This document shows, one piece after another, positions 45,474 through 63,620 of a stretch of DNA of 64,000 nucleotides; the stretch's first letter is position 1; the number at the start of each line of letters is the position of its first letter. The notes below the pieces were generated by a model, which saw only the letters and a list, made by a program, of their open reading frames with translations, made no database searches and was not told where the DNA came from. This DNA is from Lentisphaeria bacterium (GTDB lineage: Bacteria > Verrucomicrobiota > Lentisphaeria > Victivallales > UBA1829), in NCBI GenBank assembly GCA_003526375.1, contig DPDG01000084.1, positions 369 to 64,368 on the forward strand. The letters run 5' to 3'. The translations under genes were made by a program, and so were the position numbers.

Positions 45474-45721
45474 CTTTTTTCCCTCCATTCGAATGGTAGA
45501 TCCGGCTGATAGCAGTACACCTTCCGCGGCGGTGTGTATGTTTCTGTTTCTTTTGATGACCGATGGAACAACGCTAAAATTTTCTCCCACATGATGCGGC
45601 TGCCTTTCATTTTCGATTTGATTTTTGTTTCTGACCATAATATATTATGAGCAAGTAGACATCTTGTATCCACTCTGTGAATCCGTGATACAAAAATCGA
45701 AAAAAATTGGAGATACCCCGT

Positions 45722-46696
45722 ATGCCGCTGCAAAAATCCCAGATGCACCGCCTGATGCGAATTGCCGCACTGCTCAAGGAAAACCGTTACCCGAACTCGG
45801 AAACGCTGGTGAAGGAATTCCGGCGCATCGCCGTGGAGGAGGAATTGGAGATCGACTGCGGGAAAAAAACGATCCTGCGGGACATGAAGGTTCTGGAGGA
45901 AGAATTTCACTGTCCTCTTGCTTTTGACCGCGCCCGCAACGGCTACTATCTTCAGCATCACGGCTGGGATTTTATTGCCCCGGCCCTACTGGACGAAAAC
46001 GAGATGCTTGCAGCCGTCATCGGAGCGAGGATTGCGGAAGAAATCTTCCCGGCTCCCTTGAAAAACAAGATCCGCAATGCGGTGGACTATCTGCTCCAGA
46101 ACAACAATCCCGACTTTCTGGACACGGCCAACATGGAAAGTCTGAACATTCTTTCCGGACTGTATGCGAATCTGGAGCCCGACATTTTCATGACGGTCTT
46201 TCAGGGCTGGCTGACCCACCACTGTGTCAGAATTGACTATGCGGACTGGCGGGGACAGATTTCAAAACGTGTCATCGAACCGCACACGCTGGTCTTTTTC
46301 AACAATTCCTGGTACAGCAAAGCGTTTTGCCATGAGAAAAAACAGCCTCGCACGTTTTCTCTGCAAAGAATCAAAAGCGCGGAACTTCTGAAGGGGACAT
46401 TCGAGCCTGACAAGGAGATCATCGCCTCGGTCAATCCGGATGATTTTTTCAGCTTTGAAAAAGTCCAAAACGTAAAGCTGCATGCGGACAAATACGCGCT
46501 TGATCGCCTGAAGGCATTTCCTTTGCACAGCGGACAGGTCATCCATGATGACGGCACGGTCGAAATCCCGGCAGTCGCCAAAGAAGTCCTGTTTCCGTTT
46601 CTTTTCTCCCAGGAAGGAAATGTCAAAATTCTGGAACCGGTTGCCCTGAAGAAAGAATTCAAAGCAAAACTGCGGAAAATTCTCGACAACTGCTGA
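45722..46696 (+). CDS. HTH + WYL-domain transcriptional regulator (BrxR/CapW-like architecture)
   Basis: ATG at 45722 with a GGAGA RBS. N-terminal wHTH (RLMRIAALLKENRYPNSETLVKEF), central WYL-type domain (VFFNNSWYSKAFCHEKKQPRTFSLQRI), and a C-terminal extension. Confidence 0.8.
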   Translation: MPLQKSQMHRLMRIAALLKENRYPNSETLVKEFRRIAVEEELEIDCGKKTILRDMKVLEEEFHCPLAFDRARNGYYLQHHGWDFIAPALLDENEMLAAVIGARIAEEIFPAPLKNKIRNAVDYLLQNNNPDFLDTANMESLNILSGLYANLEPDIFMTVFQGWLTHHCVRIDYADWRGQISKRVIEPHTLVFFNNSWYSKAFCHEKKQPRTFSLQRIKSAELLKGTFEPDKEIIASVNPDDFFSFEKVQNVKLHADKYALDRLKAFPLHSGQVIHDDGTVEIPAVAKEVLFPFLFSQEGNVKILEPVALKKEFKAKLRKILDNC

Positions 46697-47098
46697 GAGG
46701 GCATAATCCGATCCGAAGACCGAGACGTCTTTGAGGTTTCCGGAGAATGTCGCGGCGATTGGCGGTCAGGCAGGGTGGCAAATTGGCCCCGGATTTTTGA
46801 AAAAATCGGGTATTTTTTCTGGACCGACGTCTGAGGTCTCCTGTTCGAATCCCACATGGCAGCCGTTTTTCAGAGTCTCTGAAGTGTCTGAGTTCACTCT
46901 GCTTTTTCGGGCATATGCCGTTGAACTCTTTACTGCATAAATCGTTGTGACAGAAACAACCTCTCTCCGAAAACACACAAAAGCCCCGAAACAGAGAGTT
47001 TTCGAAGCTCCCAGAGATGTCAGATGTGTGTTTCCGTCCCGGCAGAAGCGGGGGGCAGAGAATCTTCAGTCTCCAGCGAATCGGGAGAAAGTGCGATG

Positions 47099-48340
47099 TC
47101 AGTCAAGCACTTTGCGGCAGAGTTTGCCGATCTCCCACGCGATACTCTCGTATATGCCGCAGGGATGGAACGCATTAAGCTCGTCTACCAGTGTCTGCGC
47201 CGTCCGGGGCAGCGCTTCCGCCAAGCGGGACAGTTCCACCAGCACCAGTTTGGGATTGAGATCGCAGCGCAGGGCCAGTTCTGCGAAGTGGTCTCTGGTC
47301 AGCACCCCCATTCGTGTTTCGCCGCCGATGCTCATGGCAAAACGTTTGGCAATGGAGTCGTAAACCATCGTCGAGAGCAGGTCATACGCCGGGGCGAACG
47401 ACGGCCGACCGTTCCGGTAGAGCACGGCGTAGTTCTTGGCGTGGGCGTCGCAGTTGCCGGTGAGAAAGTTGAAGATGAGCAGCCGGATGAAGCTCAATTT
47501 CCCCGCTGCGGGCATTTTGATCTCGGTCATCCTGCGCATGCACTCCTCCACGCCCGGACCGCCGTCCTCCTGATACTTGTGTTTCGGCGGCACGTTCAGC
47601 AGCTGGCAGAAGTCCTCCTGATGCAGGCGCACGGTAATGTCGTCCACCGTCTCGCGGTCAAAGCGTGTCACGGTATAAAACGGTTCGTCATTCAGCGTCA
47701 GAATATCGCACTCCGCTGCCTGGATGCCGCACTTTTGTGCGAGCCTCATGCAGAAGAACTCGTTGAACACGCTGTCGGGGAAGTTCGGAATCGCCGGTTT
47801 GATAATGTGCGTGGAGGGCGTTCCGTAAAGCGGCAGGGAGATTTTTCCGTTGCGGACGCAGGCTACCAGTTTTTCCTGCGACCCTGCGCCGGAGATGCGG
47901 ACCCCTTCGTCGCCGACGTCCAGCGGCCGCTGACCGAGGTTGTCCAAGATGCGGTATGCTTCATCACCGGAAAGGTCGCGGTAAACGGGATTTTTCAAAG
48001 ATTGCGGCGTCTGCCCCGCCGGATAGAATGACACCGCACCTGCGCAGTCCGCGCCGATCCGCTTCAGCATCCCGAAGGTGTTGTCCTCGGAAACATGGAG
48101 GATCATCGCCACCGTGGCGCGGATACGCTCGTCGGGCAGCAGATTGGAGAAGAAGTTCTCCACCGCGGGATCGTGGAAAACCTCGTCCGTCAGCGGCAGA
48201 TTCTGCGACAGCGGATAGGCGTCGGGCGAGCGCAGATACTCTGTCGAGTAGGCAAACGACATCGCGCCGTTGTCCTGCGACAGCGTCCCGATGCGGTCCG
48301 TGTTCAGAAACACATGAAGTTCATCGTGGATGTCGGACAT
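47099..48340 (-). CDS. hipA: HipA-family serine/threonine kinase toxin
   Basis: 413 aa. N-terminal LHVFLNTDRIGTL, SGAGSQEK, and catalytic loop GNCDAHAKNYAV. Confidence 0.9.
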   Translation of the reverse strand: MSDIHDELHVFLNTDRIGTLSQDNGAMSFAYSTEYLRSPDAYPLSQNLPLTDEVFHDPAVENFFSNLLPDERIRATVAMILHVSEDNTFGMLKRIGADCAGAVSFYPAGQTPQSLKNPVYRDLSGDEAYRILDNLGQRPLDVGDEGVRISGAGSQEKLVACVRNGKISLPLYGTPSTHIIKPAIPNFPDSVFNEFFCMRLAQKCGIQAAECDILTLNDEPFYTVTRFDRETVDDITVRLHQEDFCQLLNVPPKHKYQEDGGPGVEECMRRMTEIKMPAAGKLSFIRLLIFNFLTGNCDAHAKNYAVLYRNGRPSFAPAYDLLSTMVYDSIAKRFAMSIGGETRMGVLTRDHFAELALRCDLNPKLVLVELSRLAEALPRTAQTLVDELNAFHPCGIYESIAWEIGKLCRKVLD

Positions 48341-49085: not shown

Positions 49086-49285
49086 ATTATGGTTTTGTGT
49101 GTCGTGTTCCCCTTTGGGGAAGATGCGCGAACCGGCAAAAATTCGGTGCTGACAATGAAATTCGTCCTCAAACAATACGATACGGAGATGATCTCCTTCG
49201 ACCTGCGGTCGGAGGGGCTGGACTGTTTTGTCTGTTTTGTCCCTGTGATTCTGCAACGCATCAGGAAGTCGAGCGCGGATGGAAA

Positions 49286-51871
49286 ATGAGCACATTCGGA
49301 ATAAAATGTCCTGGCTGCGAAATTCTCCTGGAAGCCGATGAAAACGATATCGGAGCCAAAGTCGAATGTACTGAATGCGGTCGACCTTTTATTCTCGCGC
49401 GGAATCCAGATCCCTCTTCGGCTGAGACCGCCAACGATACTGTGACTTTTACCTTCGATGCCTTCCCGAAAGATCTGGACTACAACCAGCCGTTGTTCCT
49501 GACAATGCCCAATGGCACTTTCCCGGTGGAAAGCTGGAGCAATGTGCTTGAAAAGTGTTTTTCCTATGCGTTTGCGAATAATGCCGCGAAAGTGGGAGAA
49601 TTGGTGGACATCAAAACTCCATTTCGCAAGGCAGTCCTCATTTCTCGGCACCCCGAACGGCTGCGAAGGGTAAAGGAATTGGGCGGTGATCTTTATATGG
49701 AAACTAATCTCAGCGCCCATGGGATCGTTAAAAGTGTCTGCGGACTCATGGCTTACTGTGGATTCCCGGTGAAGGCGATTTCGGTAACCTACCGGGTCAA
49801 GTCTTCCGAGCCGCCCGCTCCGGAAAGCAAAGTCGATGCGCCCGTATCGAGTTCCGAATTCAGCAAACCGCTGGATTTTTCCACGTTTACGACCGGGATC
49901 ACGATCCCCGTCAGGGTGCATGAAGCATTTTTGAAGCACTTGTCGGTTAAATTGGAACGGGGAAAGTCTCATCCCGTGACGATCATGGTCGGGGACAGCA
50001 GTTTTCAGGTCTCGATCAACAACATCGGTTTCTCCGACCCGAACCGGAAACAAGTCCTAGCGTTTCTGTGGCGGAAGAATTCTCCGCTTGCCAAGAGCTT
50101 TCAGGCAACTTTCACTGCGGCGTATCAGCAGCTGATGGAAGATCACGCCAATCGGACTGGGATCGACACGGCTCTGACCGTTTCCTGCGGTGAACAGCCA
50201 GATGTTTTCAAAATTGCCATGGATACGCCGTTGGTCGAAAGCAAAAAGCCAGACGCGCCCGTTCAAGCCGAAACGGTCGCCCCGATCTCGCTGGAAGCAA
50301 CTTCCCAGGATGGCATCCATGGAGTTCGTATTCAAGAAAATTGGATTCGGTTCGACTTCACAAATGCACCGTCATTTGAAAGGACTGTACCCGCATATTG
50401 CTGTATCGACGGGAATGTGTTCGAAGGAAGAAACTGGGTAAGGATACTTGTGGCGCTCGTGGAATTCGAACTTGCCAAAGGGAATCCGGCATTGGAGGAT
50501 CTTTATGAGAAATCTCTGTATGGCAAGAAAACAATACGGCCATTTTTGATGAAAAGCAGAATCGAGGGGAGTCGCAATTGTTCAGAACTTTCAAACGGAT
50601 ACTGGATTAATGTCGGATGGTCTATTCCGTTTTTAATGCAATTCATACAAGCTTTTCTCCTGCATTGTGGCTATGATGAGAAACAGGTCGTGATATACGG
50701 TGTGCCTAAAGCGAACAATTCTGCAACGCACGAAAGTTCTCAGACGAAGAAGACTGAAGTACATGGGGTTGACATGGAAAAAGCTGAGACCTTTTTGAAA
50801 ACGGCTGGATTGCGAGGGGCTACTGTGCAGGAATTGATCGATGCGATCCAGCCCAGTGCCGTATTCTGGTCAACAAAAAACCTGCTGGATGAAAACTTGA
50901 ATGTCATCGCCATGCCCGATAATCGCTATGTGCACGCCGACTGTTTTGTCGATCTGGATGAAGCAGAAGATGTTTTTGGGAAAATCCTCAGCTCCCATTT
51001 TGCGCGATTTGACGGATACAGCAACAATCAGCTTCTTTTTGGCGCGGCTTTACAAGAACTTTCAATGTTCCTGAATGATAATGACTGCGAAAACATTAAT
51101 GTGGTATATGCCATTGCCCGGTACCTGTTTGAGAAGAAGGCAGCAGGTAAAAAATATAAATTCGCTCCACCACACATCTTTGAGACCGAACCGGATTATC
51201 CACTGAACCTTAAGGGCCTGATGATCCGCCTTGCGAGAAGCAACGGAGGTATCCTCCATGAGGTTGATGCAAAACATTATCTTCAAAAGACCATGCTTAC
51301 CTATGGGAGTATAGGGCAACTGCTGCAGGTTGGAAACGATAAGATGTTCCTGATGTATGACCGTGACAGGTATTTGTTGAGCGAAGTTATTGGAATTGAC
51401 GATGCATGGTGCCGCCAGATGCATGATCGGGTGGATGACTTATTCCGCAAGGCCGATGTGGCGTATGTGATCCCGAGGGATATCAGTGAGGCATGGCTCA
51501 CCACCTTGCCGGTTTTGCCGCTGGGACTCGCATGGACACATCTTCTGCTTCAGGAAATACTTGATAAGTACCCCGCCATCGGATTCAAGTCGATTTCAGC
51601 CGGTCTGAATCAGGCGTATCATACATTGGCAGCAGCTTTTGTTTCAATTGATTCTCCTCTGCAGACTTTCCCGGATGTGGTAACGCTTTTCATGGAGGAA
51701 CACCATAAATTGCCTACACGCATGTCCGGCGAGGAGTTGCGGATCGAATTAAGGGACAAAGGAATGCTGGAAGCCGGTGAAATGATCTATTCGATTCACA
51801 AGGCGCTGAATGACTATCGTTTCGCATGGACGGATGAAAATAAAACAGTGCTGATTCGCGGGAATAAATAA
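49286..51871 (+). CDS. 861-aa protein with an N-terminal MJ0042-type zinc ribbon, otherwise unknown
   Basis: The ATG at 49286 gives MSTFGIKCPGCEILLEADENDIGAKVECTECGRPFIL (CxxC...CxxC). The track start 49097 adds 63 unlikely residues. It is the first gene of the operon. Confidence 0.7.
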   Translation: MSTFGIKCPGCEILLEADENDIGAKVECTECGRPFILARNPDPSSAETANDTVTFTFDAFPKDLDYNQPLFLTMPNGTFPVESWSNVLEKCFSYAFANNAAKVGELVDIKTPFRKAVLISRHPERLRRVKELGGDLYMETNLSAHGIVKSVCGLMAYCGFPVKAISVTYRVKSSEPPAPESKVDAPVSSSEFSKPLDFSTFTTGITIPVRVHEAFLKHLSVKLERGKSHPVTIMVGDSSFQVSINNIGFSDPNRKQVLAFLWRKNSPLAKSFQATFTAAYQQLMEDHANRTGIDTALTVSCGEQPDVFKIAMDTPLVESKKPDAPVQAETVAPISLEATSQDGIHGVRIQENWIRFDFTNAPSFERTVPAYCCIDGNVFEGRNWVRILVALVEFELAKGNPALEDLYEKSLYGKKTIRPFLMKSRIEGSRNCSELSNGYWINVGWSIPFLMQFIQAFLLHCGYDEKQVVIYGVPKANNSATHESSQTKKTEVHGVDMEKAETFLKTAGLRGATVQELIDAIQPSAVFWSTKNLLDENLNVIAMPDNRYVHADCFVDLDEAEDVFGKILSSHFARFDGYSNNQLLFGAALQELSMFLNDNDCENINVVYAIARYLFEKKAAGKKYKFAPPHIFETEPDYPLNLKGLMIRLARSNGGILHEVDAKHYLQKTMLTYGSIGQLLQVGNDKMFLMYDRDRYLLSEVIGIDDAWCRQMHDRVDDLFRKADVAYVIPRDISEAWLTTLPVLPLGLAWTHLLLQEILDKYPAIGFKSISAGLNQAYHTLAAAFVSIDSPLQTFPDVVTLFMEEHHKLPTRMSGEELRIELRDKGMLEAGEMIYSIHKALNDYRFAWTDENKTVLIRGNK

Positions 51872-51901
51872 GCGATAAGCCTAAGGGATAGAGAGTCAAA
51901 T

Positions 51902-54235
51902 ATGTATGGATATGAATGGACGGACAAGAACGGCATATACCGGTTGTCCGTTAACAGCAAAATTGAAAAAGAGATCCGGCCGGTTTTCAAAGATGAGCTG
52001 GATTATTTCGGCTTCAATGAACACTGGTCATACCCGAATACCAAGGCTCCGCTGCTTTGGGCAGAAGGAATCCGCCGCTATGTAATGAACGGTGTCTGTG
52101 TAGCGGAAGCTGTCGGCGGCGGATTTTACACCAAACCGGAAATAAAAATCTATCAGAACGGTCTGAAGCTGAAACCGATAAATGTCGGTGCACTTTGGAA
52201 AGCAAATGAGCGGCTGATGCTGGGCCTCGAAAAAACGGCAATGGATTTTATCCGCAACACTTATGATACATATGAAAAAGCGAGCATGGCTTTTGCTGTT
52301 GCCTTCAGTGGAGGGAAAGATTCTCTGGTTCTCCTTGATCTTGTATCCAGAGCACTTTCTCCGGACAAATTCTCCGTCGTGTTCAGTAACACCGGCATGG
52401 AACTTTCCACGACCATTCAGACAGTAGAAAAAGCGAAGAAGCATTGGGCATCACTGAAGTTTTATGAAGCAAGAAGTCATCTTAATCCCGCTGACAGCTG
52501 GCGAGAATTTGGCCCTCCGGGACGCCGAATGCGCTGGTGTTGCGCTGTCCACAAGTCTGTTCCGACCATTCTGCTTCTCCGGAGAATAACCGGAGATTAC
52601 ACCGTAAAAGCTGTTGTTTTTGACGGTGTCAGGGCAGAAGAAAGTGCGGCAAGAGCCGAGCGTGATGAAATCAGTGTCGGCGCGAAAAATATAAACCAAA
52701 TTAACTGTAGCCCAATACTGAAATGGAATTCATCTGAGTTATTTTTGTATCTTCTGAACTATGGAATTTTGTTAAATGATGCGTATCGTGTAGGCTTTAA
52801 TCGTGTAGGCTGCACAATTTGTCCTCTATCATCAGGATGGCGGGATAGTATTAGCAATCATGTTTACCCCGCCGAAATATCCCCATTGCTGAGCCAAGTA
52901 GAAAAATATACTGATGGTATTGGTATTAAGTCTTCTCAAAGAAAAAACTACATTGAGCAAAATGGTTGGCGCACTCGAATGGGCGGTCGCGGTCTTCCGA
53001 ATGGGGGCAACCGGTTTGAAGAAATAATAGCAAATGATCGAATTACGTTTAATTTTTTGCGAAAGACTCAAAATTGGCTTGATGTGTGCCCGATCCTTGG
53101 TCCCATAGTATATCATGAAGGGGATACGTTTACTCAGCTGATTGACAGGCAACAATTTCTCTTCCAGGTAAATAATAAATCTGTTTCTTATTGGCCTTAC
53201 TCAAAAATGGATAGGTTTATACTCAGCCATTTACGAGGTGTTGCCAATAAAACTGCTTATTGCTTTGGATGCAAAGCATGTGAGGTTGAATGTCCTGTTA
53301 ATGCATTTGCGATCACAGAAGAAAACAAAATCTATATAAGAGAAGAAAAGTGTATTCACTGTAGTAATTGCATTGAATTCACAAACGGGAAAGGTTGTTT
53401 AGCCGCAAAATCACTTTCCGTAACAAGAGGAGCAAACGGCATGGATTTAAAAGGAATGAATCGTTATCAGACCTTTGGTCTGCGGCGTCCGTGGCTTGAA
53501 CATTTTTTTGCAAACAGAGAAAATTGTTTTACCATGGGGGTATTGGGTAATCGTCAGTATGATTCACTGAAAGTATGGCTTCGCGAAGGTGGTCTCCTGA
53601 CCGCATCCAGCAAAGGTGAAAAATCAGGGATTCCGACTCCGCTTTTTGACAAGATCCAATCCCTCGGAGCCGGCAATCCTTTGACCTGGGCGATTATTTG
53701 GACCAATCTTGCATGCAACTCCATCATTGTAAAGTGGTACATGTTGAATGCCGCCGCAGGGGAAGTTTATGAGAAGAACGACCTGATTTTTCTGCTCGGT
53801 GATGATTATTCCCTGTCCACCCGTGATAATGCCGTGACTGCTCTGCTTGAGACGTTTCGCCATAGTCCCATAGGAACTGTTTTGAAGCAGGGTATTCCCA
53901 TTCCCAGCGGCAGCAGCTATAAGTTCTCAAAGCAGGGCTGGAACACTCCGGATGCAGTCGCTGTTCTTTATGCTTTGTACATGTGGGCTGAAGCCACGGG
54001 GCGCTATACCTTTACGCTGAGTCAGATGGCCGCAGCCAGAGGCAATGCGGATGTCAAGGGTGTCGACCCGGTTTCCATCTTCGGTATCGCTCCGGATCGG
54101 TTTAAGGATATTCTTCAGGATATCGCCCTGCAGTTTGACAAATACATCCGCACAACTTTTGTGGCGGATCTGGATAATGTTCAGCTTTTCCCGGAATACA
54201 AATCCATCGACATCTTGGATTTGATCGCGAAGTAA
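51902..54235 (+). CDS. brxP: BrxP-like PAPS-reductase-family PP-loop protein with an embedded 2x[4Fe-4S] ferredoxin-type module
   Basis: PP-loop FSGGKDS (52307-52324). RRMRWCCAVHK. CFGCKACEVECP and CIHCSNCIEF...GC (about 53261-53400). 777 aa. Confidence 0.8.
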   Translation: MYGYEWTDKNGIYRLSVNSKIEKEIRPVFKDELDYFGFNEHWSYPNTKAPLLWAEGIRRYVMNGVCVAEAVGGGFYTKPEIKIYQNGLKLKPINVGALWKANERLMLGLEKTAMDFIRNTYDTYEKASMAFAVAFSGGKDSLVLLDLVSRALSPDKFSVVFSNTGMELSTTIQTVEKAKKHWASLKFYEARSHLNPADSWREFGPPGRRMRWCCAVHKSVPTILLLRRITGDYTVKAVVFDGVRAEESAARAERDEISVGAKNINQINCSPILKWNSSELFLYLLNYGILLNDAYRVGFNRVGCTICPLSSGWRDSISNHVYPAEISPLLSQVEKYTDGIGIKSSQRKNYIEQNGWRTRMGGRGLPNGGNRFEEIIANDRITFNFLRKTQNWLDVCPILGPIVYHEGDTFTQLIDRQQFLFQVNNKSVSYWPYSKMDRFILSHLRGVANKTAYCFGCKACEVECPVNAFAITEENKIYIREEKCIHCSNCIEFTNGKGCLAAKSLSVTRGANGMDLKGMNRYQTFGLRRPWLEHFFANRENCFTMGVLGNRQYDSLKVWLREGGLLTASSKGEKSGIPTPLFDKIQSLGAGNPLTWAIIWTNLACNSIIVKWYMLNAAAGEVYEKNDLIFLLGDDYSLSTRDNAVTALLETFRHSPIGTVLKQGIPIPSGSSYKFSKQGWNTPDAVAVLYALYMWAEATGRYTFTLSQMAAARGNADVKGVDPVSIFGIAPDRFKDILQDIALQFDKYIRTTFVADLDNVQLFPEYKSIDILDLIAK

Positions 54236-54247
54236 GGAGACCGTGTT

Positions 54248-57200
54248 ATGGCGAAGTACAACACCTACATTGAATTAAGCCCCCATTATGAATCTGTGGT
54301 GGATATTGATTCCGAATCCCGATATCCCGACATGTGGCAGGATTACATCGTCCATGAGGACATGCAGAAAGCCGTAGAATGTATCTGTGATTCTTTGCGA
54401 TATGAAGATAAGGATAAGCGGCGTTCCTTTTGGATCCACGGTACTTACGGGACCGGCAAAAGTTACGCAGCCATCGTGCTGAAGCATCTTTTTGAGGATA
54501 GCATCCCCAATATCCATAAATTTCTGTCAAAACAAATGCTGATCCCATACAGGGAGCGTTTCCTTTCAATTCGTGAGAAAGGTGATTTTCTGGTGATCTG
54601 GAAGAGCCAGGCAACAGATATTCGTAACGGCACTCAGCTCATGATGACAATGGAGCATGCTATTCGTAAAAAATTGAAGGAAAAATACGGAGAAAAAGCG
54701 TATTTCGGCAAGAATTCTCTGATTGCGGCGGCCCGGGATGCCGTAGAGGATTCCGACATCAATTGGGATGAGCTTTTTTCAAATCCGACCTATGCGCTTT
54801 CTGAAGAATACAGCTCGTTTAGGGAATTTCACGATGAGGTTTTGAATGGGAATCTGAAGGCCGCAAATATCGTGGCTCGCATCTATCGCGATAAGGGCTG
54901 GGGGTTCTTTACTTCACTGCAAATGTTTAAGGACTGGGTCGCAGATGTAATCGAAGGCAACCATCTTCAGGACACCGGCATTATCTTTATTTGGGACGAA
55001 TTTACCTCTTATCTTCGAAATAATTCTACAGATGATGTATTGCAGCCACTTTCGGAATTTTGTAAAGAGCAGCCTTTCTTTATGTTTCTTATCGTTCATA
55101 AAGCAGTAAGCTGGTTAAGTCAAATCGGCGAGGAGGTTTATGAGCAAATCATTCATCGTTACCACTCGCTTAATTTCCATGTCAGTGAGAGCGCGGCCTA
55201 TGAGTTGATCGGCAGTTCTATTTTGACTCGTGCCGGAATGGAGGAGCAGTGGAATGCGGAGCGGGACAAACTGATGAAGTCGATCAGTAAAAATTTTGCT
55301 GACTTCGACAACTTGGACATAAGTAGTAAGAAAGAGCGGCTCCGTCAACTTTGTCCTCTGCATCCGATGACGCTTTCGCTGCTGGCCATCGTGGCTCAAA
55401 ATTTCGGAGCGTCCCAGCGTACGCTGTTCCGTTTTATGAAAGACCCGAAAGGTGCCGAACAAAATGTGGGGTTCATCTATTACATAAACCACTTTGGCCC
55501 GGATGACTGGCGTTGGCTGACGCCGGATTTCTTGTGGGATTACTTCTTTACCAAAGAAAGTGATTTGCGCAGTTTTTCTCCAGAAGCAAAAAGTGCTTAT
55601 CAGCATTACATAACCAAGCGGGAATTCATTTCTGACGAATATCATTTGCATGTGTTTAAGGCCGCCATGCTTCTGCTTGCCGTCATGTCTTCGGGGAACG
55701 TCAGCAACCTTTATAGTCAGGCCACAACGCAACGTAAGGTTCCCTCGACCAGCAACACGCTTTATAAGTGCTTTGCCGGCCAGTTGAACAAAGAAGATGT
55801 GGAGATGTATCTTTCCGATCTTGAGCAGATTGGTCTCATACGTCTTGATGCCATGTCCAATGGCGACAAACGGCTCCAAATCCCCTACAGCGGAAATACT
55901 GATGTGTTTGATGTCCGCAAGGGTATGCTGATGAAGAGGTATTCCCGTTACGAACTCTTTAAGAAAAACGGTATTTTTGCCAAGTCGATGGAAGCGAAGA
56001 TTTGGGATAAGACCAATGCGTCCTACGGCAGGATGTACATTGCGGCCTGTGATGCAGGTACGAATTCGACCAATTTGAGGTTTAATGAGATTCAGGATGA
56101 GCTTAAAAAGTATCCTTATAAATTCGGAATCCTTGTAATCACGATCTCAGAATCGAGTCAGTTCGCTGCGATGCAGGACAAGGTTAAAGCTCTTGCCGGG
56201 CAGGACACAACGGGACGCATGGCGGTCTATTTAATGAAATCTCCGCTCACAGACGATCATTTGGACCGTTGGTACAATGCCATGACACATTCCGAGCTTG
56301 CCGCAGAGGAAGGCAAGAGCGGTGATTCCGAGCGATATAAGGATGAGGCGAGTACGATTATTGAAGAATGGTCCGGCTCCGCTAAGGACGATCAGCTGAT
56401 GGTAGTTTGTGGTGACAAGGTCTACCCATCGGAATACGGCACAGATTTCTTTGCTCCGAAGTTGGAGAAAGATATTTTGTTTGGCTCCATATTTACAGCC
56501 GCGCCCGAATTGATTGTAACAACCAATACGGCTTTTAAGAAAAACCAGCAGAGTACAGCCTTGGCAGGCATACAAAAGAAGGTGCCTAATACGCAGGTTG
56601 GAAATATTGTCAACGGTTTGAAAACGGCTGGAGTGTGGGAAACGGATGGGCTTGAGAAGCTTGCCCAAAGTTCCGGCAATAATGGCGCTGTTGCCATTGC
56701 AAAAATTGCAAGCTTTATTTTACAGCGTTTTTCGCAAGGGATGCAAATTAAGCTGGATGATTTTGTGCAAGAACTGCACGGAGCTCCTTTCGGCTACTAC
56801 GATAACATGACTTGCGGCTATATTCTCGGTTTTCTGCTCAGATACTATGTCAACAGTGAGTTCAGTTGGAATAAAGGAGACAATAATCCCTGGCCACTGA
56901 ATGAACAAACTCTTGCCACCATGATTACGGCCATTTGTAAGGAGGATGTCGTCAATAATTATCTTTCTCCCGGTACTGAAATTTGGCAGAAATTCAAGCC
57001 CTATGTGCAAAAGGTTTTTAAACTTCAGGACGGTGAAGCGGTCAATGAAACTGAAGCCCGCAAATATATGTCCAAACAATGTACGGAAAAAGCTGGTGTT
57101 CCATTCTGGGTTCTCAAGTTTGTGACAGAAGAAAAATTCGGAGGAGCGGCAACAAAACAAGTCGCGAACGATATTATTGATCTCTTCTGCGACTTCATGA

Positions 57201-58444
57201 ACGAGAACGGTGATCAGGAGCAGGTGATGAGCAGTATCACGGTGAAGTTTACTGGCCGGGGCTCGTTGCGAAAAGTCCTGACCGATCTTTATTTTGACCA
57301 AAATACAGTTTATGATGCATTCAGTTCCTTCATTTCTCAGCGGTGCCAACAATTGCAGGCGTTGCGAGAGAACATTGGTTTGACCAGTCATGATCTCTTC
57401 GATGCTATCCATCAGATGATGCAAGGTCAGGTTTCCACATGGACTGAGGATCAAGTCGGAGAAAAGCTTGCAGAACTCTGCGTCGAATATCGTGCGGTTT
57501 CAATTCTGAATGGTGCTCTCAATCTGAAACGAAAGAGCATTAAGGCCTTGAGCAATGATATTGAGAATGCCTTGGGAAATATGAAGATACCTGGGACCGT
57601 GATCGAAAAGCTGGATTACGCATGGCTTCCGGCGCTAAGGGCCATGTTACAGATAATTGCCTCACAATGGTCCAAGATTGAATTGGCCGACCGTGAAGCT
57701 TATGTGCAACTTCTGAGCAATGATGCGCAAACAGTATGGAGTAACATTACCTCGTCCAAAACAGTTCTTCAGCGTTACATGGAGAAGCATGATTACAACT
57801 GTAGTGAGGACGAACTGGATGGTATTTATGCCGCGCTGAAACCGGTTAGTTACAACTCCCCCGCCTCTGACTTTGATGCCAGAATTGATACGCAACTTAA
57901 GAAGATCGCATATAACCGTAACAAAGTGCGAATACAGAAACTTTGGGAATCTCAGAGCGGGTTTGAGTCTGTTGCGAAATGGTGTGATAATTTTGCTGTA
58001 CCGATCCAATGGGTCGTAGAAGATGAATTACTGCCGCATATCACCGTTTTGAAAACGGTGCAGGATGGCCGACTCTCAGACAGTATTGCGCTTCATAACG
58101 CAACGCAGTATTTCGAGAACCATACTGTCAGTGTGCTGAAAGACAAGGCATTCATAAAGACCCGCTTCATTGCACAAATCGGCGAAAGCTATCGTGCCGC
58201 ATTTGAGGCATCCGAAACAGTGCTGGTTTCTCGTCTGAAGACAAATGCAAAGTTGTCCTCGGACGTTTATCTATGGGCAAACAAGGTCGCGGAAATCCGC
58301 AAGATCATTGACGCATTCCTGCTGGATAAATATTGCGGAGAAGCAAAAAAGAAAGTTAAGACCATGCCTGAAGCCAAGTTGCGTGAAAGGGTCGTTAAGC
58401 TACTGGAAGAGAATCCTGATCTTTATACCCTGTTTATGAGTTGA
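54248..58444 (+). CDS. brxC: BrxC/PglY-like large P-loop ATPase
   Basis: AAGGAGA RBS. Walker A GTYGTGKS (54440-54463) about 65 aa from the N-terminus. 1398 aa. It sits between brxP and pglZ. Confidence 0.75.
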   Translation: MAKYNTYIELSPHYESVVDIDSESRYPDMWQDYIVHEDMQKAVECICDSLRYEDKDKRRSFWIHGTYGTGKSYAAIVLKHLFEDSIPNIHKFLSKQMLIPYRERFLSIREKGDFLVIWKSQATDIRNGTQLMMTMEHAIRKKLKEKYGEKAYFGKNSLIAAARDAVEDSDINWDELFSNPTYALSEEYSSFREFHDEVLNGNLKAANIVARIYRDKGWGFFTSLQMFKDWVADVIEGNHLQDTGIIFIWDEFTSYLRNNSTDDVLQPLSEFCKEQPFFMFLIVHKAVSWLSQIGEEVYEQIIHRYHSLNFHVSESAAYELIGSSILTRAGMEEQWNAERDKLMKSISKNFADFDNLDISSKKERLRQLCPLHPMTLSLLAIVAQNFGASQRTLFRFMKDPKGAEQNVGFIYYINHFGPDDWRWLTPDFLWDYFFTKESDLRSFSPEAKSAYQHYITKREFISDEYHLHVFKAAMLLLAVMSSGNVSNLYSQATTQRKVPSTSNTLYKCFAGQLNKEDVEMYLSDLEQIGLIRLDAMSNGDKRLQIPYSGNTDVFDVRKGMLMKRYSRYELFKKNGIFAKSMEAKIWDKTNASYGRMYIAACDAGTNSTNLRFNEIQDELKKYPYKFGILVITISESSQFAAMQDKVKALAGQDTTGRMAVYLMKSPLTDDHLDRWYNAMTHSELAAEEGKSGDSERYKDEASTIIEEWSGSAKDDQLMVVCGDKVYPSEYGTDFFAPKLEKDILFGSIFTAAPELIVTTNTAFKKNQQSTALAGIQKKVPNTQVGNIVNGLKTAGVWETDGLEKLAQSSGNNGAVAIAKIASFILQRFSQGMQIKLDDFVQELHGAPFGYYDNMTCGYILGFLLRYYVNSEFSWNKGDNNPWPLNEQTLATMITAICKEDVVNNYLSPGTEIWQKFKPYVQKVFKLQDGEAVNETEARKYMSKQCTEKAGVPFWVLKFVTEEKFGGAATKQVANDIIDLFCDFMNENGDQEQVMSSITVKFTGRGSLRKVLTDLYFDQNTVYDAFSSFISQRCQQLQALRENIGLTSHDLFDAIHQMMQGQVSTWTEDQVGEKLAELCVEYRAVSILNGALNLKRKSIKALSNDIENALGNMKIPGTVIEKLDYAWLPALRAMLQIIASQWSKIELADREAYVQLLSNDAQTVWSNITSSKTVLQRYMEKHDYNCSEDELDGIYAALKPVSYNSPASDFDARIDTQLKKIAYNRNKVRIQKLWESQSGFESVAKWCDNFAVPIQWVVEDELLPHITVLKTVQDGRLSDSIALHNATQYFENHTVSVLKDKAFIKTRFIAQIGESYRAAFEASETVLVSRLKTNAKLSSDVYLWANKVAEIRKIIDAFLLDKYCGEAKKKVKTMPEAKLRERVVKLLEENPDLYTLFMS

Positions 58445-58461
58445 CGAAGGAGGGGAGAGCC

Positions 58462-60822
58462 GTGGTAATCACTGAAATTGAGGAAAAGCTTAGTCAGGAA
58501 CGGGGCTTCGGGTCCCGCTTCCCAGCCCGGATTATATTTGCCGAAAGTCTTGAGTCCTATTCTTTGCTCGAACGCCAGCTGAAGGCCATCTGCGATATCA
58601 CGATCAATGTTGCAGATTTTTGTAGTGCCTTGGATACAGTTCCTCAATTTGACCGGATCAAAGCGATACTGGAAGAACACGAGGGGAAACAGATATTATT
58701 GCTTTCTGTTGGTGAGTATCTCCGTCTGTGTATTAACCGTGAGTTAAATGCAGAACGTCGTCAATTTCTCTCATTTTGGGAGACGCAACAGGCAGAAACA
58801 TCGAGGACCAGAATCATCATGCCGATGTTCAGTTGTCGCGACATCTTCGACCGAGTCGCAGGTGCTATAGACGAGCGCCAGCAGGATTATATCTGGGTTC
58901 TTGACAGTGTGCCTCCCATTGAGCGTTATACTGTTTCCGTTTACTCTCCTCAATTTAAGGATGCAATCAAGCCCGACGCCAGGAATTTGACAGAATGGCT
59001 GCGTGATTGGCAGAAATTCCTCCTGAAAGATACATCCTGTTCAATAGTGACCAATCAAGAGAGAAATGCTGAGATCTCCTATGGCACAGTGAGTATCAGA
59101 CTGATCAATAGCCCGTTTGGCTACCTGGCGGGTCTTTTGGCAGAGGGAACTGCTCTTGTCGAAAAGTGGGAAAGCAATGAATTTTGGAGTCAAATGGTCA
59201 ATTATACCTCCCATTTTCACGACGGGGTTTCTTTTGCAAAGATAGTTCTTCATTCCCTGAATATCAAAACATTTGACTTCGTTTCGATAGTGACAAGATG
59301 GACTACCTTGAGCAAATTCCAAAAAGAACTCGTGTGGCTTTGGTATCGTGTGTTTCCGACAGAAGAATATTATTCCTATGCTTGCGAAAAAGCGGATTCT
59401 GCAGCGGATATCCCGGCTAAAATCAGAGACGAAATTCTACTGGTAGCCAGCAGGAGTCCTATATGGATCGAACAAAGGATGGCGGCAATGAAGGTTTTGA
59501 ATTTTCCTTCATTTGACGATGCTTATTTTGCGAAACTTGACAAACTTCCTCTTGCAGAAACGAAACTTCAGCTTTTGACCTATCAAACGCATGAGGAAAG
59601 AACCTTTGCCGTGAAAGTAATCAGTAATCTTTTGCGGAACGGAGCAGAGTCCGATGCCGTGGCTGACACTATTTCCGATGCTTATCCTGCGCTGGCAAGT
59701 TATATGAAAGATAACACTGGCTGTGACGAAGCATTGGATAAATATATGCGGTGGTACCGAAAGAACAAACTTATCAATCGGTATCCAGGTGATTATCCCG
59801 TTCCGATGACCTTTGATCGCTTCGATGCCCGTTTTAAGTTGATGCATCAGATGGAAGGCAAAGATTGTGTTGCTTTCTGGATCGACGGTTTTGGTGTGGA
59901 ATATGCTCCGCTCTTTCTGCATGAGCTGAAAGCGAGAGGAATAGAACCTGATTCGGTAAAAATTGCAACGGCGCTTCTCCCGACAGAGACGAGTTATAAT
60001 CACCAATGGGATGAGAATGATCCAATGACGCTGAAGTGGGATCGCTTGGATTCATGCTCTCATAAAGGTATGCCGGACGACAAAAGTTATTATTCTTGCA
60101 TTGTTCACCAACTTGCCGTTTTTGCCGAAGCCGCCGAAAAAGTCGAAAAACTTTTGGAAGAGCATAACTATGTGATTATCACAGGGGATCATGGTAGCAG
60201 CCGTTTTGCAGCGCTTGCATTTCATGATTCCAGCGTTGTCCCTGTGGCGCCCCCTCGTAAATCGACGATTAGGAGTTTTGGACGTTTTTGTGAACTTGAT
60301 GAAAAATCCATCGACATGATTCCACTCCCAGATACCAGCAAATTGATTGCTACAATTGGTGGCAAAACAGTTCTGGTCATGAACAACTATCAACATTTTG
60401 CTGTAGGTGGCAACATCGCTAGCGGGAATGCAGAAGACAATGATGTTGTCGGCGAAACCCATGGAGGAAATACGGCGGAGGAGCGTCTTGTTCCCGTCTT
60501 TGTAGTAAAAAAAGGAAAAAAACTTGTGCCGATTACTTGCAAACCGAAAAATCCATATGTGACCAAGAAAAATGGTCATGTAGAAACAATATTCTCATTC
60601 AGTCAGTCGATATTTACTCTTGAGGTCGCTCAAGGGAGCAAAAAAGCCGTTTGCACAGAAATTTCGGCAGGGGAATGGCAGATTGCCTTGGATAATGTGA
60701 CAACAGATGTAATTATTCTTTCTGTTATTGCAAACGGGAGACTCTTACCCAATGTCACGCTGAAAGTTAAAACCTCGGGTATCAGCAAGAACAGTGATCC
60801 GTTTGGAGATATGGGATCATGA
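58462..60822 (+). CDS. pglZ: PglZ-domain (alkaline-phosphatase superfamily) protein
   Basis: GTG at 58462 after an AAGGAGGGGAG RBS (track TTG 58441 is the alternative). PglZ core AFWIDGFGVEY...ITGDHGSSRF...ETHGG. Confidence 0.85.
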   Translation: MVITEIEEKLSQERGFGSRFPARIIFAESLESYSLLERQLKAICDITINVADFCSALDTVPQFDRIKAILEEHEGKQILLLSVGEYLRLCINRELNAERRQFLSFWETQQAETSRTRIIMPMFSCRDIFDRVAGAIDERQQDYIWVLDSVPPIERYTVSVYSPQFKDAIKPDARNLTEWLRDWQKFLLKDTSCSIVTNQERNAEISYGTVSIRLINSPFGYLAGLLAEGTALVEKWESNEFWSQMVNYTSHFHDGVSFAKIVLHSLNIKTFDFVSIVTRWTTLSKFQKELVWLWYRVFPTEEYYSYACEKADSAADIPAKIRDEILLVASRSPIWIEQRMAAMKVLNFPSFDDAYFAKLDKLPLAETKLQLLTYQTHEERTFAVKVISNLLRNGAESDAVADTISDAYPALASYMKDNTGCDEALDKYMRWYRKNKLINRYPGDYPVPMTFDRFDARFKLMHQMEGKDCVAFWIDGFGVEYAPLFLHELKARGIEPDSVKIATALLPTETSYNHQWDENDPMTLKWDRLDSCSHKGMPDDKSYYSCIVHQLAVFAEAAEKVEKLLEEHNYVIITGDHGSSRFAALAFHDSSVVPVAPPRKSTIRSFGRFCELDEKSIDMIPLPDTSKLIATIGGKTVLVMNNYQHFAVGGNIASGNAEDNDVVGETHGGNTAEERLVPVFVVKKGKKLVPITCKPKNPYVTKKNGHVETIFSFSQSIFTLEVAQGSKKAVCTEISAGEWQIALDNVTTDVIILSVIANGRLLPNVTLKVKTSGISKNSDPFGDMGS

Positions 60823-61022
60823 GACGGAAAAAAGTTGAATGCTGCGAGTGTCGCAAGACGTTAGTAAAGGATGAGGTTGCTTTGTGCAAAAAGTTACTCG
60901 CCACCGATACGGCAGTTTTTTACTGTATTGACTGCCTGGCTGCATATTTGGAGTGCACAAAGCAAGACCTTGAAATCAAAATACAGGAATTCAAAGAACA
61001 GGGTTGTGCCCTGTTTTTGTAA
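60819..61022 (+). CDS. 67-aa CxxC/CxxC mini-protein (zinc-ribbon-like)
   Basis: ATGA overlap with the pglZ stop. VECCECRK...FYCIDCLAAYLEC. Confidence 0.5.
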   Translation: MRRKKVECCECRKTLVKDEVALCKKLLATDTAVFYCIDCLAAYLECTKQDLEIKIQEFKEQGCALFL

Positions 61023-61036
61023 ATCAGGAGAAAATT

Positions 61037-62476
61037 ATGATGTTGGAAGATAAAATTCGCGATGTCTTCGGCGACATGGTCGTGCTGAAAAATCCGGAAC
61101 GGGCTGAATTTTTTAAGAATTTGAGCCTGCCTTCATATATGCGAGATTGGCTGGTCATGAAGTTTTCAAATGAAAATGGGGAAATTGATTACGACAATGT
61201 ACTCAGCTATATTCGGCAATATATCCCGAGTCGAGAGGATTATGAACAATTCAAGTTTGAAATGGTTAATGGTGAAACCGTTCGTTTTCTTGCAAGATTA
61301 CGTGTTGCTGTTGACATTAAAACAGGAAAGACCATGTTTGAATTGCCTGATTTTGGGGGAGCCAAGGCTGGTGCTGCTGGTGAGGTTACTAATGATGTTG
61401 TAAATAGATGGAAAGATACGCTTCTTAAAGAAAGCGAAAATTGGGGGGTTCTCGAGCTTATCTGGGGAAAGGATAGGGCAAAGGGAGTAGTAAAACTCAT
61501 TGGATACAGCCCATTTTGCCCCTATACTGTTAATTTGGACTATTATAAAGATGCAAGGAATTCATTTACGACAGAAGAATGGATTGATCTTCTTATCGCG
61601 GCTGCAGATTATAACCCGGAAGGTTACGAATCCGAAGCTCAAAAACTCTGTTTCCTCAGGCGACTGCTCCCCTTTGTGGAAAAGCGTATCAACCTCATGG
61701 AACTTGCGCCTAAAGGGACTGGGAAAAGTTATGTGTATCAAAAAATCAGCAAGCGAGGGTGGTTGATAACAGGAGGTACGGTCTCTCGTGCCTCTCTTGT
61801 CTATGATAATGCAAAAAAGACCGGAGGGCTTATTACTCGTTTCGACTTTGTCGGGTTTGATGAAATTCAGTCCATGTCGTTTGTGCAGCCAACGCAGATT
61901 CAGACCGCACTGAAGGATTACATGGAATTCGGCGAAGTTAAGGGATTCGACGCATCTGTTGTTGCCGGGGCAGGAATCATTGTGCTTGGTAATATTGATG
62001 CCAGCAGATTTAATACCAATGAGAATATGATGGTGGAAGTCAGTCCGATTTTCAAGGAATCGGCTTCATTGGATCGCTTTCACGGTTTTATTCCTGGCTG
62101 GGAACTTCCTCGTATGCACCAAGGTCTTGTCGCCAATGGTTGGGCTCTGAATACTGAGTATTTTGCGGAAGTTTTGCATCTCATGCGTGATGATCTGAGT
62201 TATGCTACAATTGTTGACGATTGCCTTCTTCTTCCACCAAAACCAGACCAGCGTGATCTGACTGCCATTACGCGGTTGTGTACCGCGTTTATGAAGTTGA
62301 TTTTCCCGAATGCAAAATGCAAAGAAGATATTTCACCAGAAGACTTTATAAAATATTGCCTGGAGCCGGCCAAAGAAATGCGCAGCGTGATAAAGAAGCA
62401 ACTTTGCATTATTGATCCAAAGGAATTCAATGTTCCTGGGAAGAAAGATATTCCTGATATTCGCTACAAGTATTGA
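61037..62476 (+). CDS. brxL: BrxL-like ATPase (Lon-related AAA+ core, short form)
   Basis: ATG at 61037 with an AGGAG RBS. N-terminal NLSLPSYMRDWLVMKF...GETVRFLARLRV as in BrxL. Walker A APKGTGKS and Walker B VGFDEIQ. 479 aa. Confidence 0.75.
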   Translation: MMLEDKIRDVFGDMVVLKNPERAEFFKNLSLPSYMRDWLVMKFSNENGEIDYDNVLSYIRQYIPSREDYEQFKFEMVNGETVRFLARLRVAVDIKTGKTMFELPDFGGAKAGAAGEVTNDVVNRWKDTLLKESENWGVLELIWGKDRAKGVVKLIGYSPFCPYTVNLDYYKDARNSFTTEEWIDLLIAAADYNPEGYESEAQKLCFLRRLLPFVEKRINLMELAPKGTGKSYVYQKISKRGWLITGGTVSRASLVYDNAKKTGGLITRFDFVGFDEIQSMSFVQPTQIQTALKDYMEFGEVKGFDASVVAGAGIIVLGNIDASRFNTNENMMVEVSPIFKESASLDRFHGFIPGWELPRMHQGLVANGWALNTEYFAEVLHLMRDDLSYATIVDDCLLLPPKPDQRDLTAITRLCTAFMKLIFPNAKCKEDISPEDFIKYCLEPAKEMRSVIKKQLCIIDPKEFNVPGKKDIPDIRYKY

Positions 62477-62486
62477 GGTGAGAATC

Positions 62487-63620
62487 TTGGCAAAGAATTA
62501 CATTTACGCCGATAATGCGGCGACCACCAAACTGGCTCCCGAAGCACTCGAAGCCATGATGCCGTTTCTCACCGATGAATACGGCAATCCGTCCAGTTTG
62601 TATTCCTTCAGCAGATCCGCGAAAAAGGCTTTAGCTGATGCCAGAGCTGTCATCGCCGAATGTATTGGAGCATCTCCGGAGGAGATCTTCTTCACCAGCG
62701 GCGGAACCGAAAGTGATAATTGGGCGATCAAAGGTTTTCTGCCGTATGGGAAGGTGATTGCATCTGCAATTGAGCACCATGCTGTTATGAATTCTCTTGC
62801 TTATTATGACCATTTTCAGCATGGTCCGGGCAAATTGCTGTCGGTAGACAAACGAGGAACTGTCTCCTTCAAATCGTTAGAAAATGCTCTTTCCCGCCGG
62901 GTGGCATTGGTGTCGGTTATGCTGGCTAATAATGAAATCGGAACCATCGAACCGGTCAGGGAACTGGCTGCAATGACTCATGAGTATGGCGCGGCGTTTC
63001 ATACTGATGCCGTTCAGGCCGTCGGTCATATTCCCGTAAATGTCGGAGCTCTTGGTGTTGATTTACTTTCCGCCTCGGCACACAAATTTCATGGGCCCAA
63101 GGGAATCGGGTTCCTTTATTGCAAGAAAGGAGACCCCTTGGAAAGATTTCTGGATGGCGGACAACAGGAAGCCGGGATGCGCGCAGGCACGGAAAATGTT
63201 GCTGCCATCGTTGGTATGGCGACTGCGTTGAGACTCTGCTGCGAAAGAATGAACGAAGTTACTGCCCGTTTGACCGAGATGACCAGCTGTTTCAGTAAAA
63301 TAATCAATGCCAACATTCCTGAAGCAACATTCAACGGAGACTCGGAACATCGTCTGCCGGGTCACATCAGCCTGTCCATCCCTGGTATTTCAGGAGAAGC
63401 TCTGATGCATGTCCTCGATTTGAAAGGTATCGCCGTATCGACGGGTGCAGCCTGCGATTCCCGTTCGACCAAAATTTCAGACGTGTTGAAAGCGATCAGG
63501 CTGCCGGTGAAACTGGCGAAGGGGACCATCCGAATCACTTTGGGAGCGTATAATACCGTGGATCAGGCACAATATATCGCCGACAAAATCGTTGAATACT
63601 TCAGGAACGTCTCAAAATGA
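62487..63620 (+). CDS. class V aminotransferase-fold cysteine desulfurase (NifS/IscS/DndA-like)
   Basis: TTG at 62487 (or GTG at 62478) after a GAGGTG RBS, 1-10 nt past the brxL stop. YADNAATT, TSGGTESDN, PLP-lysine SAHKFHGPKG, and active-site loop STGAACDS. Confidence 0.9.
   Translation: MAKNYIYADNAATTKLAPEALEAMMPFLTDEYGNPSSLYSFSRSAKKALADARAVIAECIGASPEEIFFTSGGTESDNWAIKGFLPYGKVIASAIEHHAVMNSLAYYDHFQHGPGKLLSVDKRGTVSFKSLENALSRRVALVSVMLANNEIGTIEPVRELAAMTHEYGAAFHTDAVQAVGHIPVNVGALGVDLLSASAHKFHGPKGIGFLYCKKGDPLERFLDGGQQEAGMRAGTENVAAIVGMATALRLCCERMNEVTARLTEMTSCFSKIINANIPEATFNGDSEHRLPGHISLSIPGISGEALMHVLDLKGIAVSTGAACDSRSTKISDVLKAIRLPVKLAKGTIRITLGAYNTVDQAQYIADKIVEYFRNVSK

Follow-up and report, generated by a model that had tools for sequence, protein, structure and literature searches.

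BrxP of a type 4 BREX locus in a Lentisphaeria bacterium: a predicted dicluster ferredoxin domain in a putative DNA sulfur-inserting protein

Type 4 bacteriophage exclusion (BREX) clusters of the brxPCZL kind make phosphorothioate DNA, as described in the type 4 BREX section of PMC12914056 (Nature Communications 2026; preprint 2024). According to that section, phosphorothioate DNA together with phage exclusion has been shown for Bacteroides systems only, brxP and brxC suffice for phosphorothioate formation in a host with a SufS desulfurase, and BrxP is a fusion of SspD, a 3'-phosphoadenosine-5'-phosphosulfate (PAPS) reductase-type protein, with SspB, a DUF4007 protein. The corresponding section of a second study, PMC12839542 (Nucleic Acids Research 2026; preprint October 2025), divides BrxP into a PAPS reductase domain, an alpha+beta domain, a Fer4 region, and DUF4007. 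It reports that the Cys dyad specific to DndC is missing from BrxP, which instead has the Fer4 region, that the same arrangement is found in a subset of SspD proteins, and that the roles played by these elements are "unclear," and it proposes a cysteine desulfurase as the likely sixth member of the type 4 BREX core. Here, brxP and its neighbors were analyzed in a stretch of DNA from a Lentisphaeria bacterium (assembly GCA_003526375.1, contig DPDG01000084.1, positions 369 to 64,368 of the forward strand), which is called the window below and is 64,000 nucleotides (nt) long. The locus is a standard type 4 BREX. Its BrxP is intact and ordinary and belongs to a known family, the ferredoxin architecture of which had already been described in 2025-2026, in the type 4 BREX sections of PMC12839542 and PMC12914056.

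The window brxP gene is an intact open reading frame (ORF) with the coordinates given for it in a preliminary description of this DNA (Table 1). The name given there also stands, as the protein matches the PADLOC BrxP model PDLC02510 from end to end (amino acids [aa] 1 to 775 against profile positions 1 to 775 of 779; E value, 4.5e-230) and the gene is flanked by genes for BrxC, a BREX-4-type PglZ, and BrxL. The metagenome protein P0001 (777 aa) shares 97% identity with it. BrxP consists of five modules, namely, an N-terminal beta domain, a PP-loop domain with a CC...CxxC site, an alpha+beta domain, a predicted 2x[4Fe-4S] ferredoxin-type domain, and a putative DUF4007/SspB-like domain.

The ferredoxin-type domain contains two half-sites. 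The first, CFGCKACEVECP (aa 454 to 465; nt 53261 to 53296), is a canonical CxxCxxCxxxCP motif. The second is formed by CIHCSNC (aa 484 to 490; nt 53351 to 53371) and a last Cys at aa 499 and is noncanonical, with the pattern CxxCxxC-x8-C followed by Leu and without the Pro. These computed positions agree with the stretch of about nt 53261 to 53400 in which the preliminary description had placed two ferredoxin motifs, and the CxxCxxCxxxCP pattern that it assigned to them applies to the first half-site but not to the second. All 336 family members compared have a second half-site in which x6, x7, or x8 separates CxxCxxC from the last Cys, and 265 of the 336 have a Pro right after the fourth Cys. 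When the BrxP sequence was shuffled, even one CxxCxxC occurred in only 0.6% of the shuffles. Two Pfam families score over their cut-offs, Fer4_7 (PF12838; 29.1 bits against 27) and Fer4 (PF00037; 24.0 bits against 21.1), and Fer4_10 falls slightly under its own (25.1 bits against 25.5). Against sequences of the Protein Data Bank (PDB), a profile of the whole family matched the MvhB polyferredoxin (4.7e-12), RnfB (1.9e-9), and the clostridial 2x[4Fe-4S] ferredoxins 1clf (2.4e-7) and 1fdn (2.3e-6), and a profile of aa 360 to 512 matched MvhB (7e-16), FrhG (4.7e-6 over 62 positions), and 1clf (2.6e-5). In the MvhB alignment, the last canonical CP lies a few residues ahead of the GC of BrxP, which is consistent with a displaced eighth ligand in BrxP.

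The catalytic domain is assigned by Pfam PF01507 (PAPS_reduct; aa 132 to 308, 1.1e-28, 100.8 bits against a gathering cut-off of 22.5), and the PP-loop motifs named in the preliminary description were recovered in it, namely, SGGKDS at aa 136 to 141 (nt 52307 to 52324; 98 to 100% conserved), RWCC at aa 211 to 214 (nt 52532 to 52543), and CTICP at aa 304 to 308 (nt 52811 to 52825). In an HMMER alignment, C213 and C214 together with C304 and C307 coincide with the CC and CxxC of the Mycobacterium tuberculosis adenosine-5'-phosphosulfate (APS) reductase (7lhr). At the same positions, the Vibrio PAPS reductase, which is cluster free, is without Cys. The CC...CxxC of BrxP is thus a predicted APS-reductase-type site for one [4Fe-4S] cluster, and with the two ferredoxin half-sites the protein probably binds up to three such clusters.

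The conservation of the cysteines was followed through the family. Among 1.84 billion cluster representatives searched, there were 2308 relatives at E<=0.001, many of which are full length at 30 to 50% identity, and two curated full-length alignments of 41 (A1) and 145 (A2) homologues at 29 to 97% identity were made. The eight ferredoxin Cys as well as C213, C304, and C307 are invariant in both, and C214 is invariant in A2 and at least 90% conserved in A1. When the query was compared with 125 representatives, the ferredoxin Cys were 95 to 98% conserved and C213, C214, C304, and C307 were 97 to 100% conserved, compared with only 2 to 20% for the remaining Cys of the query (66, 269, 396, 542, and 605). 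All sequences without a motif Cys were truncated or chimeric predictions that do not align through the region. As judged from these alignments, the twelve cluster-type Cys are the sole conserved Cys of the BrxP family, and the eight-Cys ferredoxin motif is a hallmark of it. Conservation among orthologues was what the preliminary description had made its 2x[4Fe-4S] reading depend on, and with all eight Cys kept, that reading is upheld by the Pfam scores and the profile matches to solved 2x[4Fe-4S] proteins as well.

An AlphaFold2 model built from the 145-sequence alignment had a mean predicted local distance difference test score (pLDDT) of 90.2 and a predicted template modeling score of 0.70, with pLDDT values of 94 to 96 for aa 451 to 490 and 89 for aa 491 to 500. 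A model of aa 360 to 512 in isolation had a pLDDT of 84, and a Foldseek search with it gave no match at E<=0.001. With the full model, the Foldseek matches included CysH (6vpu, 4e-9), the APS reductases 7lhr (3e-8) and 2goy (2.7e-7), and TtuA (5b4f, 2.5e-6); the top 50 matches all fell on the PAPS reductase domain and are uninformative on the other domains. For a dicluster ferredoxin domain in BrxP, the evidence from sequence and profiles is strong, and that from structure prediction is supportive but not decisive.

The N-terminal beta-rich domain is on par with the catalytic domain in conservation, with 27 of its 94 positions reaching 90% conservation or more in a set of 120 homologues that have less than 50% identity, and it has no match in Pfam or the PDB. 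Pfam scans at E<=10 of three parts of BrxP, namely, its first 125 aa, 145 aa in the middle, and its last 277 aa, gave nothing useful. The matches to the PADLOC DndC and SspD profiles start past this domain, at query aa 112 to 133 and near the N termini of the profiles themselves, and the type 4 BREX sections of PMC12839542 and PMC12914056 make no mention of it. Some relatives of about 850 aa (such as P0157, P0167, and P0173) align from aa ~130 only and have a different, longer N terminus. The alpha+beta domain is the most variable part of BrxP, with a mean identity to the query of 0.19. It is described as Mog1p/PsbP-like in the type 4 BREX section of PMC12839542, an assignment that Foldseek did not recover (PsbP 1v2b; E value, 0.57; probability, 0.10); the best Foldseek matches of the domain, which are still weak, are N-terminal domains of OGG1 glycosylases (E value, ~0.01).

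The C-terminal stretch of about 280 aa that the preliminary description had left unassigned is real (aa 500 to 777), but it is assignable, tentatively, as DUF4007/SspB-like. The query C terminus itself matches the PADLOC BrxP C-terminal model PDLC02511 (2e-21) and gave no match to DUF4007 (PF13182), even at E<=10, and none to SspB. It aligns with 29 homologous C termini at 22 to 50% identity, of which 16 match PF13182 (best, 4.1e-8) and 6 match the best-represented PADLOC SspB model (best, 1.2e-6), and its membership is thus proposed through transitive homology and the literature. A profile of the C-terminal region (A4) had no real match among PDB sequences, and an SspB-like relative with a solved structure is thus not detectable at the sequence level. 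On the Treponema saccharophilum plasmid pTS1 (L035, 8671 to 10302), a 543-aa SspD-like ORF that is absent from the PLSDB gene table encodes a protein with SGGKDS, CC, and both ferredoxin half-sites. The order on the plasmid is this ORF, a DUF4007 gene, a gene for an SspC-sized hypothetical protein of 1201 aa, and a class V aminotransferase gene, and it resembles an Ssp-type system whose SspD bears a ferredoxin domain and which is without PglZ or BrxL. On the basis of this split arrangement and of the homologous C termini, the BrxP C terminus is predicted to be an SspB-like DNA-binding domain, and BrxP an SspD-SspB fusion.

Table 1. Features of the window brxP gene and its neighbors (positions in the window)
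Feature	Position (nt)	Strand	Remarks
Conserved upstream gene	49097-51871	+	924 aa from GTG; stops 31 nt 5' of brxP
brxP	51902-54235	+	Intact ATG ORF, 777 aa, stop codon included
N-terminal beta-rich domain	51902-52183	+	aa 1-94; AlphaFold2 strands at 3-83, pLDDT 85-96
PP-loop ATP pyrophosphatase/PAPS-reductase-family domain	52277-52831	+	aa ~126-310
Cys213-Cys214, first half of predicted APS-reductase-type CC...CxxC [4Fe-4S] site	52538-52543	+	Alignment with CC of 7lhr
Cys304-x-x-Cys307, second half of predicted CC...CxxC site	52811-52822	+	Alignment with CxxC of 7lhr
Variable alpha+beta domain	52982-53212	+	aa ~361-437; AlphaFold2 strands 372-431
2x[4Fe-4S] ferredoxin-type domain	53249-53416	+	aa 450-505; Cys 454, 457, 460, 464 and 484, 487, 490, 499
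Putative C-terminal DUF4007/SspB-like helical domain (winged helix-turn-helix type)	53456-54232	+	aa ~519-777
brxC (SspC-like ATPase)	54248-58444	+	1398 aa; PADLOC BrxC 9.3e-72, SspC 4.4e-24; DUF6079 N terminus
pglZ, BREX-4 type	58441-60822	+	NCBIfam NF033445 BREX_PglZ_4 262.6 bits (cut-off 140); PADLOC PglZ 6.1e-31
brxL	61004-62476	+	490 aa; Pfam BrxL_ATPase 1.5e-103, BrxL_N 3e-23; PADLOC BrxL 2.6e-180
NifS/DndA/SspA-like class V cysteine desulfurase	62412-63620	+	Aminotran_5 1.7e-78; PADLOC DndA 4.5e-125, SspA 2.7e-122

The brxP, brxC, pglZ, and brxL genes are contiguous on one strand, and among the eight ORFs scanned with Pfam and PADLOC at 45.7 to 63.6 kb, there was no methyltransferase family match and hence no PglX. 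Synteny was assessed by tblastn of the window proteins against 29 related loci from genome assemblies. The order of a gene of no assigned family, brxP, brxC, pglZ, brxL, and the desulfurase gene is kept where BrxP identity is as low as 46%, in a number of loci that depends on the gene and reaches 27 of the 29, and it recurs in the locus L032, whose BrxP has 32% identity. A Methanosphaera plasmid likewise carries brxP, brxC, pglZ (with a BREX-4 annotation), and brxL in order. The desulfurase gene is kept 3' of brxL in 20 related loci, a position that agrees with the sixth core gene proposed in the type 4 BREX section of PMC12839542. As listed, its ORF overlaps the brxL stop, and its real start is probably 3' of that stop codon. 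A 70-aa ORF between brxL and the desulfurase gene is present in L032 and absent from the window. The window BrxL is a short form that matches the BrxL_N and BrxL ATPase domains only (the PADLOC BrxL model has 482 positions) and is without a Lon-protease-like C-terminal part. Upstream of the operon are a gene for a WYL and WCX domain protein (45707 to 46696, + strand), which is a candidate BrxR-like regulator, and a 335-aa ORF without an assigned family (47024 to 48031, + strand). None of the 29 related loci gave a match to either, and both may lie outside the conserved system. The G+C content is 43 to 47% over the BREX locus (50001 to 64000) and mostly 47 to 59% elsewhere (1 to 50000), which is consistent with a horizontally acquired defense island.

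The gene immediately upstream of brxP probably starts at the Met codon at nt 49286 ("MSTFGIKCPGCEILL..."), which gives a product of 861 aa. The product has an N-terminal CxxC...CxxC and no match in Pfam, PADLOC, NCBIfam, or the PDB. In 27 of the 29 related loci, the gene immediately 5' of brxP is a homologue, with 26 to 75% identity. At the same position, L032 has an 857-aa gene without a Pfam family, whose similarity to the window protein is weak (E value, 9e-5) and falls on a module that is seemingly duplicated in the window protein (aa ~62 to 183 and 351 to 480). The gene is not mentioned in the type 4 BREX sections of PMC12839542 and PMC12914056, and it may be an undescribed component of type 4 BREX.

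By analogy with the Bacteroides systems, BrxP is predicted to be the subunit that inserts sulfur in a type 4 BREX marking host DNA by phosphorothioate and not by methyl groups. The preliminary description had suggested sulfur chemistry on DNA rather than methylation, in agreement with the formation of phosphorothioate DNA by BrxP, BrxC, and a host desulfurase in the type 4 BREX section of PMC12914056. As the best explanation of the whole, to which we give a probability somewhat above even, we propose that BrxP inserts sulfur with its ferredoxin domain acting as an electron wire to the catalytic cluster. The NifS-like desulfurase of the operon would supply persulfide sulfur, the PP-loop domain would activate the target with ATP, and the catalytic CC...CxxC cluster would receive the sulfur. 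The two ferredoxin clusters would form a built-in wire for two electrons from a low-potential donor of the cell, and these electrons would reduce the S(0) of the persulfide to sulfide level, as the P-S bond requires. The ferredoxin domain would then take the place of the thiol chemistry that the Cys dyad provides in DndC, and BrxC and the C-terminal domain would place BrxP on its DNA motif. Two observations fit this electron relay, namely, that no Cys outside the cluster sites is conserved and that BrxP is without the DndC Cys dyad; with only the 4 + 8 cluster-type Cys conserved, no separate conserved Cys would be available as a persulfide carrier or for resolution. The named relatives, which are mostly from anaerobes (Clostridia, Bacteroidales, Desulfotomaculum, Desulfofundulus, and Methanosphaera), are also counted in its favor. 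Several points weigh against it. DndC and, apparently, canonical SspD make phosphorothioate without a ferredoxin domain, so the module is not chemically indispensable. The CC...CxxC cluster of APS reductase is not thought to cycle between redox states in catalysis. In addition, the Foldseek matches of the aa 360 to 512 model to ferredoxins are local (38 to 56 residues) and nonsignificant (E value, 0.13 to 0.34; probability, 0.94 to 0.95), with 56 columns at 3.1 Å root mean square deviation (rmsd) for FrhG and 38 columns and an rmsd of 1.8 Å for HydB.

The absence of a ferredoxin domain from canonical SspD and DndC also speaks for a role of the clusters outside catalysis, in which they would be structural or DNA contacting and would hold the PP-loop, alpha+beta, and DUF4007 domains on DNA without electron transfer, similar to the Fe-S clusters of EndoIII/MutY, DinG, and the archaeal RNA polymerase D subunit. 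The ferredoxin domain is flanked directly by the catalytic module on one side and the predicted DNA-binding DUF4007 domain on the other, and the family profile weakly matches the ferredoxin-like domain of archaeal RNA polymerase Rpo3/D (E value, 0.0066), both of which would suit such a role. However, the best sequence matches are electron-transfer ferredoxins (MvhB, RnfB, FrhG, and clostridial ferredoxin), and both four-Cys sites are kept in every full-length member, which a two-cluster wire needs and which goes beyond the needs of a scaffold; we consider a structural role rather unlikely. The clusters might alternatively form a redox or oxygen sensor that allows DNA modification, or the whole defense, only when they are intact or reduced. 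A sensor would fit the mostly anaerobic taxa of the named relatives, and the noncanonical second half-site (x6 to x8, no Pro) could make one cluster labile, but nothing was seen that points to regulation, and a separate candidate regulator of the WYL type is already present at the locus. Sensor clusters are usually single and do not occur as ferredoxin-like pairs, and we regard this explanation as improbable.

A further possibility is that the ferredoxin clusters reduce the catalytic cluster for radical chemistry, in analogy to the ferredoxin-like inserts of glycyl-radical-enzyme activases. It builds on a contested claim that DndC uses S-adenosylmethionine (SAM), which is reported in PMC10853773, and a weak NCBIfam match of aa 452 to 504 to the ferredoxin insert of the glycyl-radical activase YjjW (1.2e-4) points the same way. 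PMC10853773 notes, however, that there is no precedent for such a use and no relationship between PP-loop and radical SAM enzymes, and there is no CxxxCxxC radical-SAM motif among the conserved Cys of BrxP; we regard this explanation as highly improbable. Least credible of all is that the stretch rich in Cys arose by chance or binds zinc and holds no Fe-S cluster. The noncanonical second half-site would be in line with it, but the stretch scores over the Pfam Fer4 cut-offs, its motif is rare in shuffled sequences, CP occurs at the fourth Cys in most of the family members, and the significant profile matches run along whole ferredoxin domains of solved structures. A chance or zinc-binding motif was rejected on the Fer4 scores, the shuffling, and the profile matches to solved ferredoxins.

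The question at stake in DNA phosphorothioation is how persulfide sulfur comes to replace a phosphate oxygen. A sulfurtransferase with its own two-cluster ferredoxin and no conserved Cys beyond the cluster sites points to an electron-driven route, and BrxP is a convenient single-polypeptide system for testing it. A broader form of the electron-wire proposal, which we put forward tentatively and hold to be doubtful, is that three [4Fe-4S] clusters serve as an internal wire in BrxP, that phosphorothioation by BREX-4 and by ferredoxin-bearing SspD is reductive and driven by ferredoxin or flavodoxin without a protein thiol relay, that immunity is coupled to redox state, and that the N-terminal domain and the upstream gene are undescribed partners. 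If it were true, DNA self-marking, and hence immunity, would be tied to the low redox potential of anaerobic cells, and both the N-terminal domain and the upstream gene, which are conserved, would belong to the pathway. The window itself adds one more ordinary BrxP member and no new biology.

Compared with known systems, BrxP shares with DndC a PP-loop ATP pyrophosphatase domain of the PAPS reductase family with a [4Fe-4S] site, which in BrxP is predicted, and in both cases the sulfur is taken to come from a desulfurase, which for DndC is of the DndA/IscS type. The cluster site of DndC has three Cys in common with that of APS reductase (PMC12193691). DndC has DndD and DndE as partners, whereas the partner of BrxP is the ORC/Cdc6-type BrxC. 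An identification of the window protein as DndC was rejected, as it scores 19.8 bits with the TIGR03183 equivalog, whose cut-off is 290.4, and the PADLOC DndC models cover the PP-loop region only. The assimilatory APS reductases (CysH with [4Fe-4S]; 2GOY and 7LHR) match BrxP in fold and, residue for residue, in the CC...CxxC Cys. They are without a ferredoxin or DNA-binding domain and act on a sulfonucleotide with thioredoxin, and BrxP, in comparison with them, has an intact SGGKDS PP-loop. The tRNA sulfurtransferases TtuA, TtcA, and NcsA have a PP-loop fold like that of BrxP and share with it the concept of a cluster that carries sulfur to an ATP-activated nucleic acid. In these enzymes, the cluster ligands are at positions other than those in BrxP, there is no fused ferredoxin, and the sulfur of TtuA arrives as a thiocarboxylate.

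The best NCBIfam matches of BrxP are archaeal "hypothetical" PAPS reductase proteins of the PRK13795 type (NF010366 to NF010369). The NF010367 match (BrxP aa 94 to 491 against profile positions 211 to 576 of 584, 5.8e-47) spans the PP-loop, alpha+beta, and ferredoxin domains, which suggests, from profile similarity, that this three-part module is old. BrxP scores far under the equivalog cut-offs of these families (160 against 456), differs from them in the N-terminal 200 aa, and has the DUF4007 domain that they are without. A search for literature on the archaeal PRK13795/MJ0066 relatives found nothing usable.

The SspABCD system resembles the window system in the PP-loop/PAPS reductase domain of SspD (PADLOC SspD, 9.1e-5), in SspB, to which the window C terminus is similar by transitive homology, and in SspC, which the window BrxC resembles. 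SspD and SspB are separate proteins, whereas the window has one 777-aa protein in a BREX operon with PglZ and BrxL, and the standard PADLOC SspD profile, with 277 positions, is too short to include the alpha+beta and ferredoxin modules. Closest of all is BrxP of the Bacteroides salyersiae type 4 BREX (brxPCZL), as described in the type 4 BREX section of PMC12914056. Relative to that type of cluster, the window locus adds the conserved upstream gene of 861 to 924 aa and has no mcrA between brxP and brxC, and its second half-site has x8 within the x6 to x8 of the BrxP family. The neighbors and the architecture are otherwise the same, and nothing essential differs between the two.

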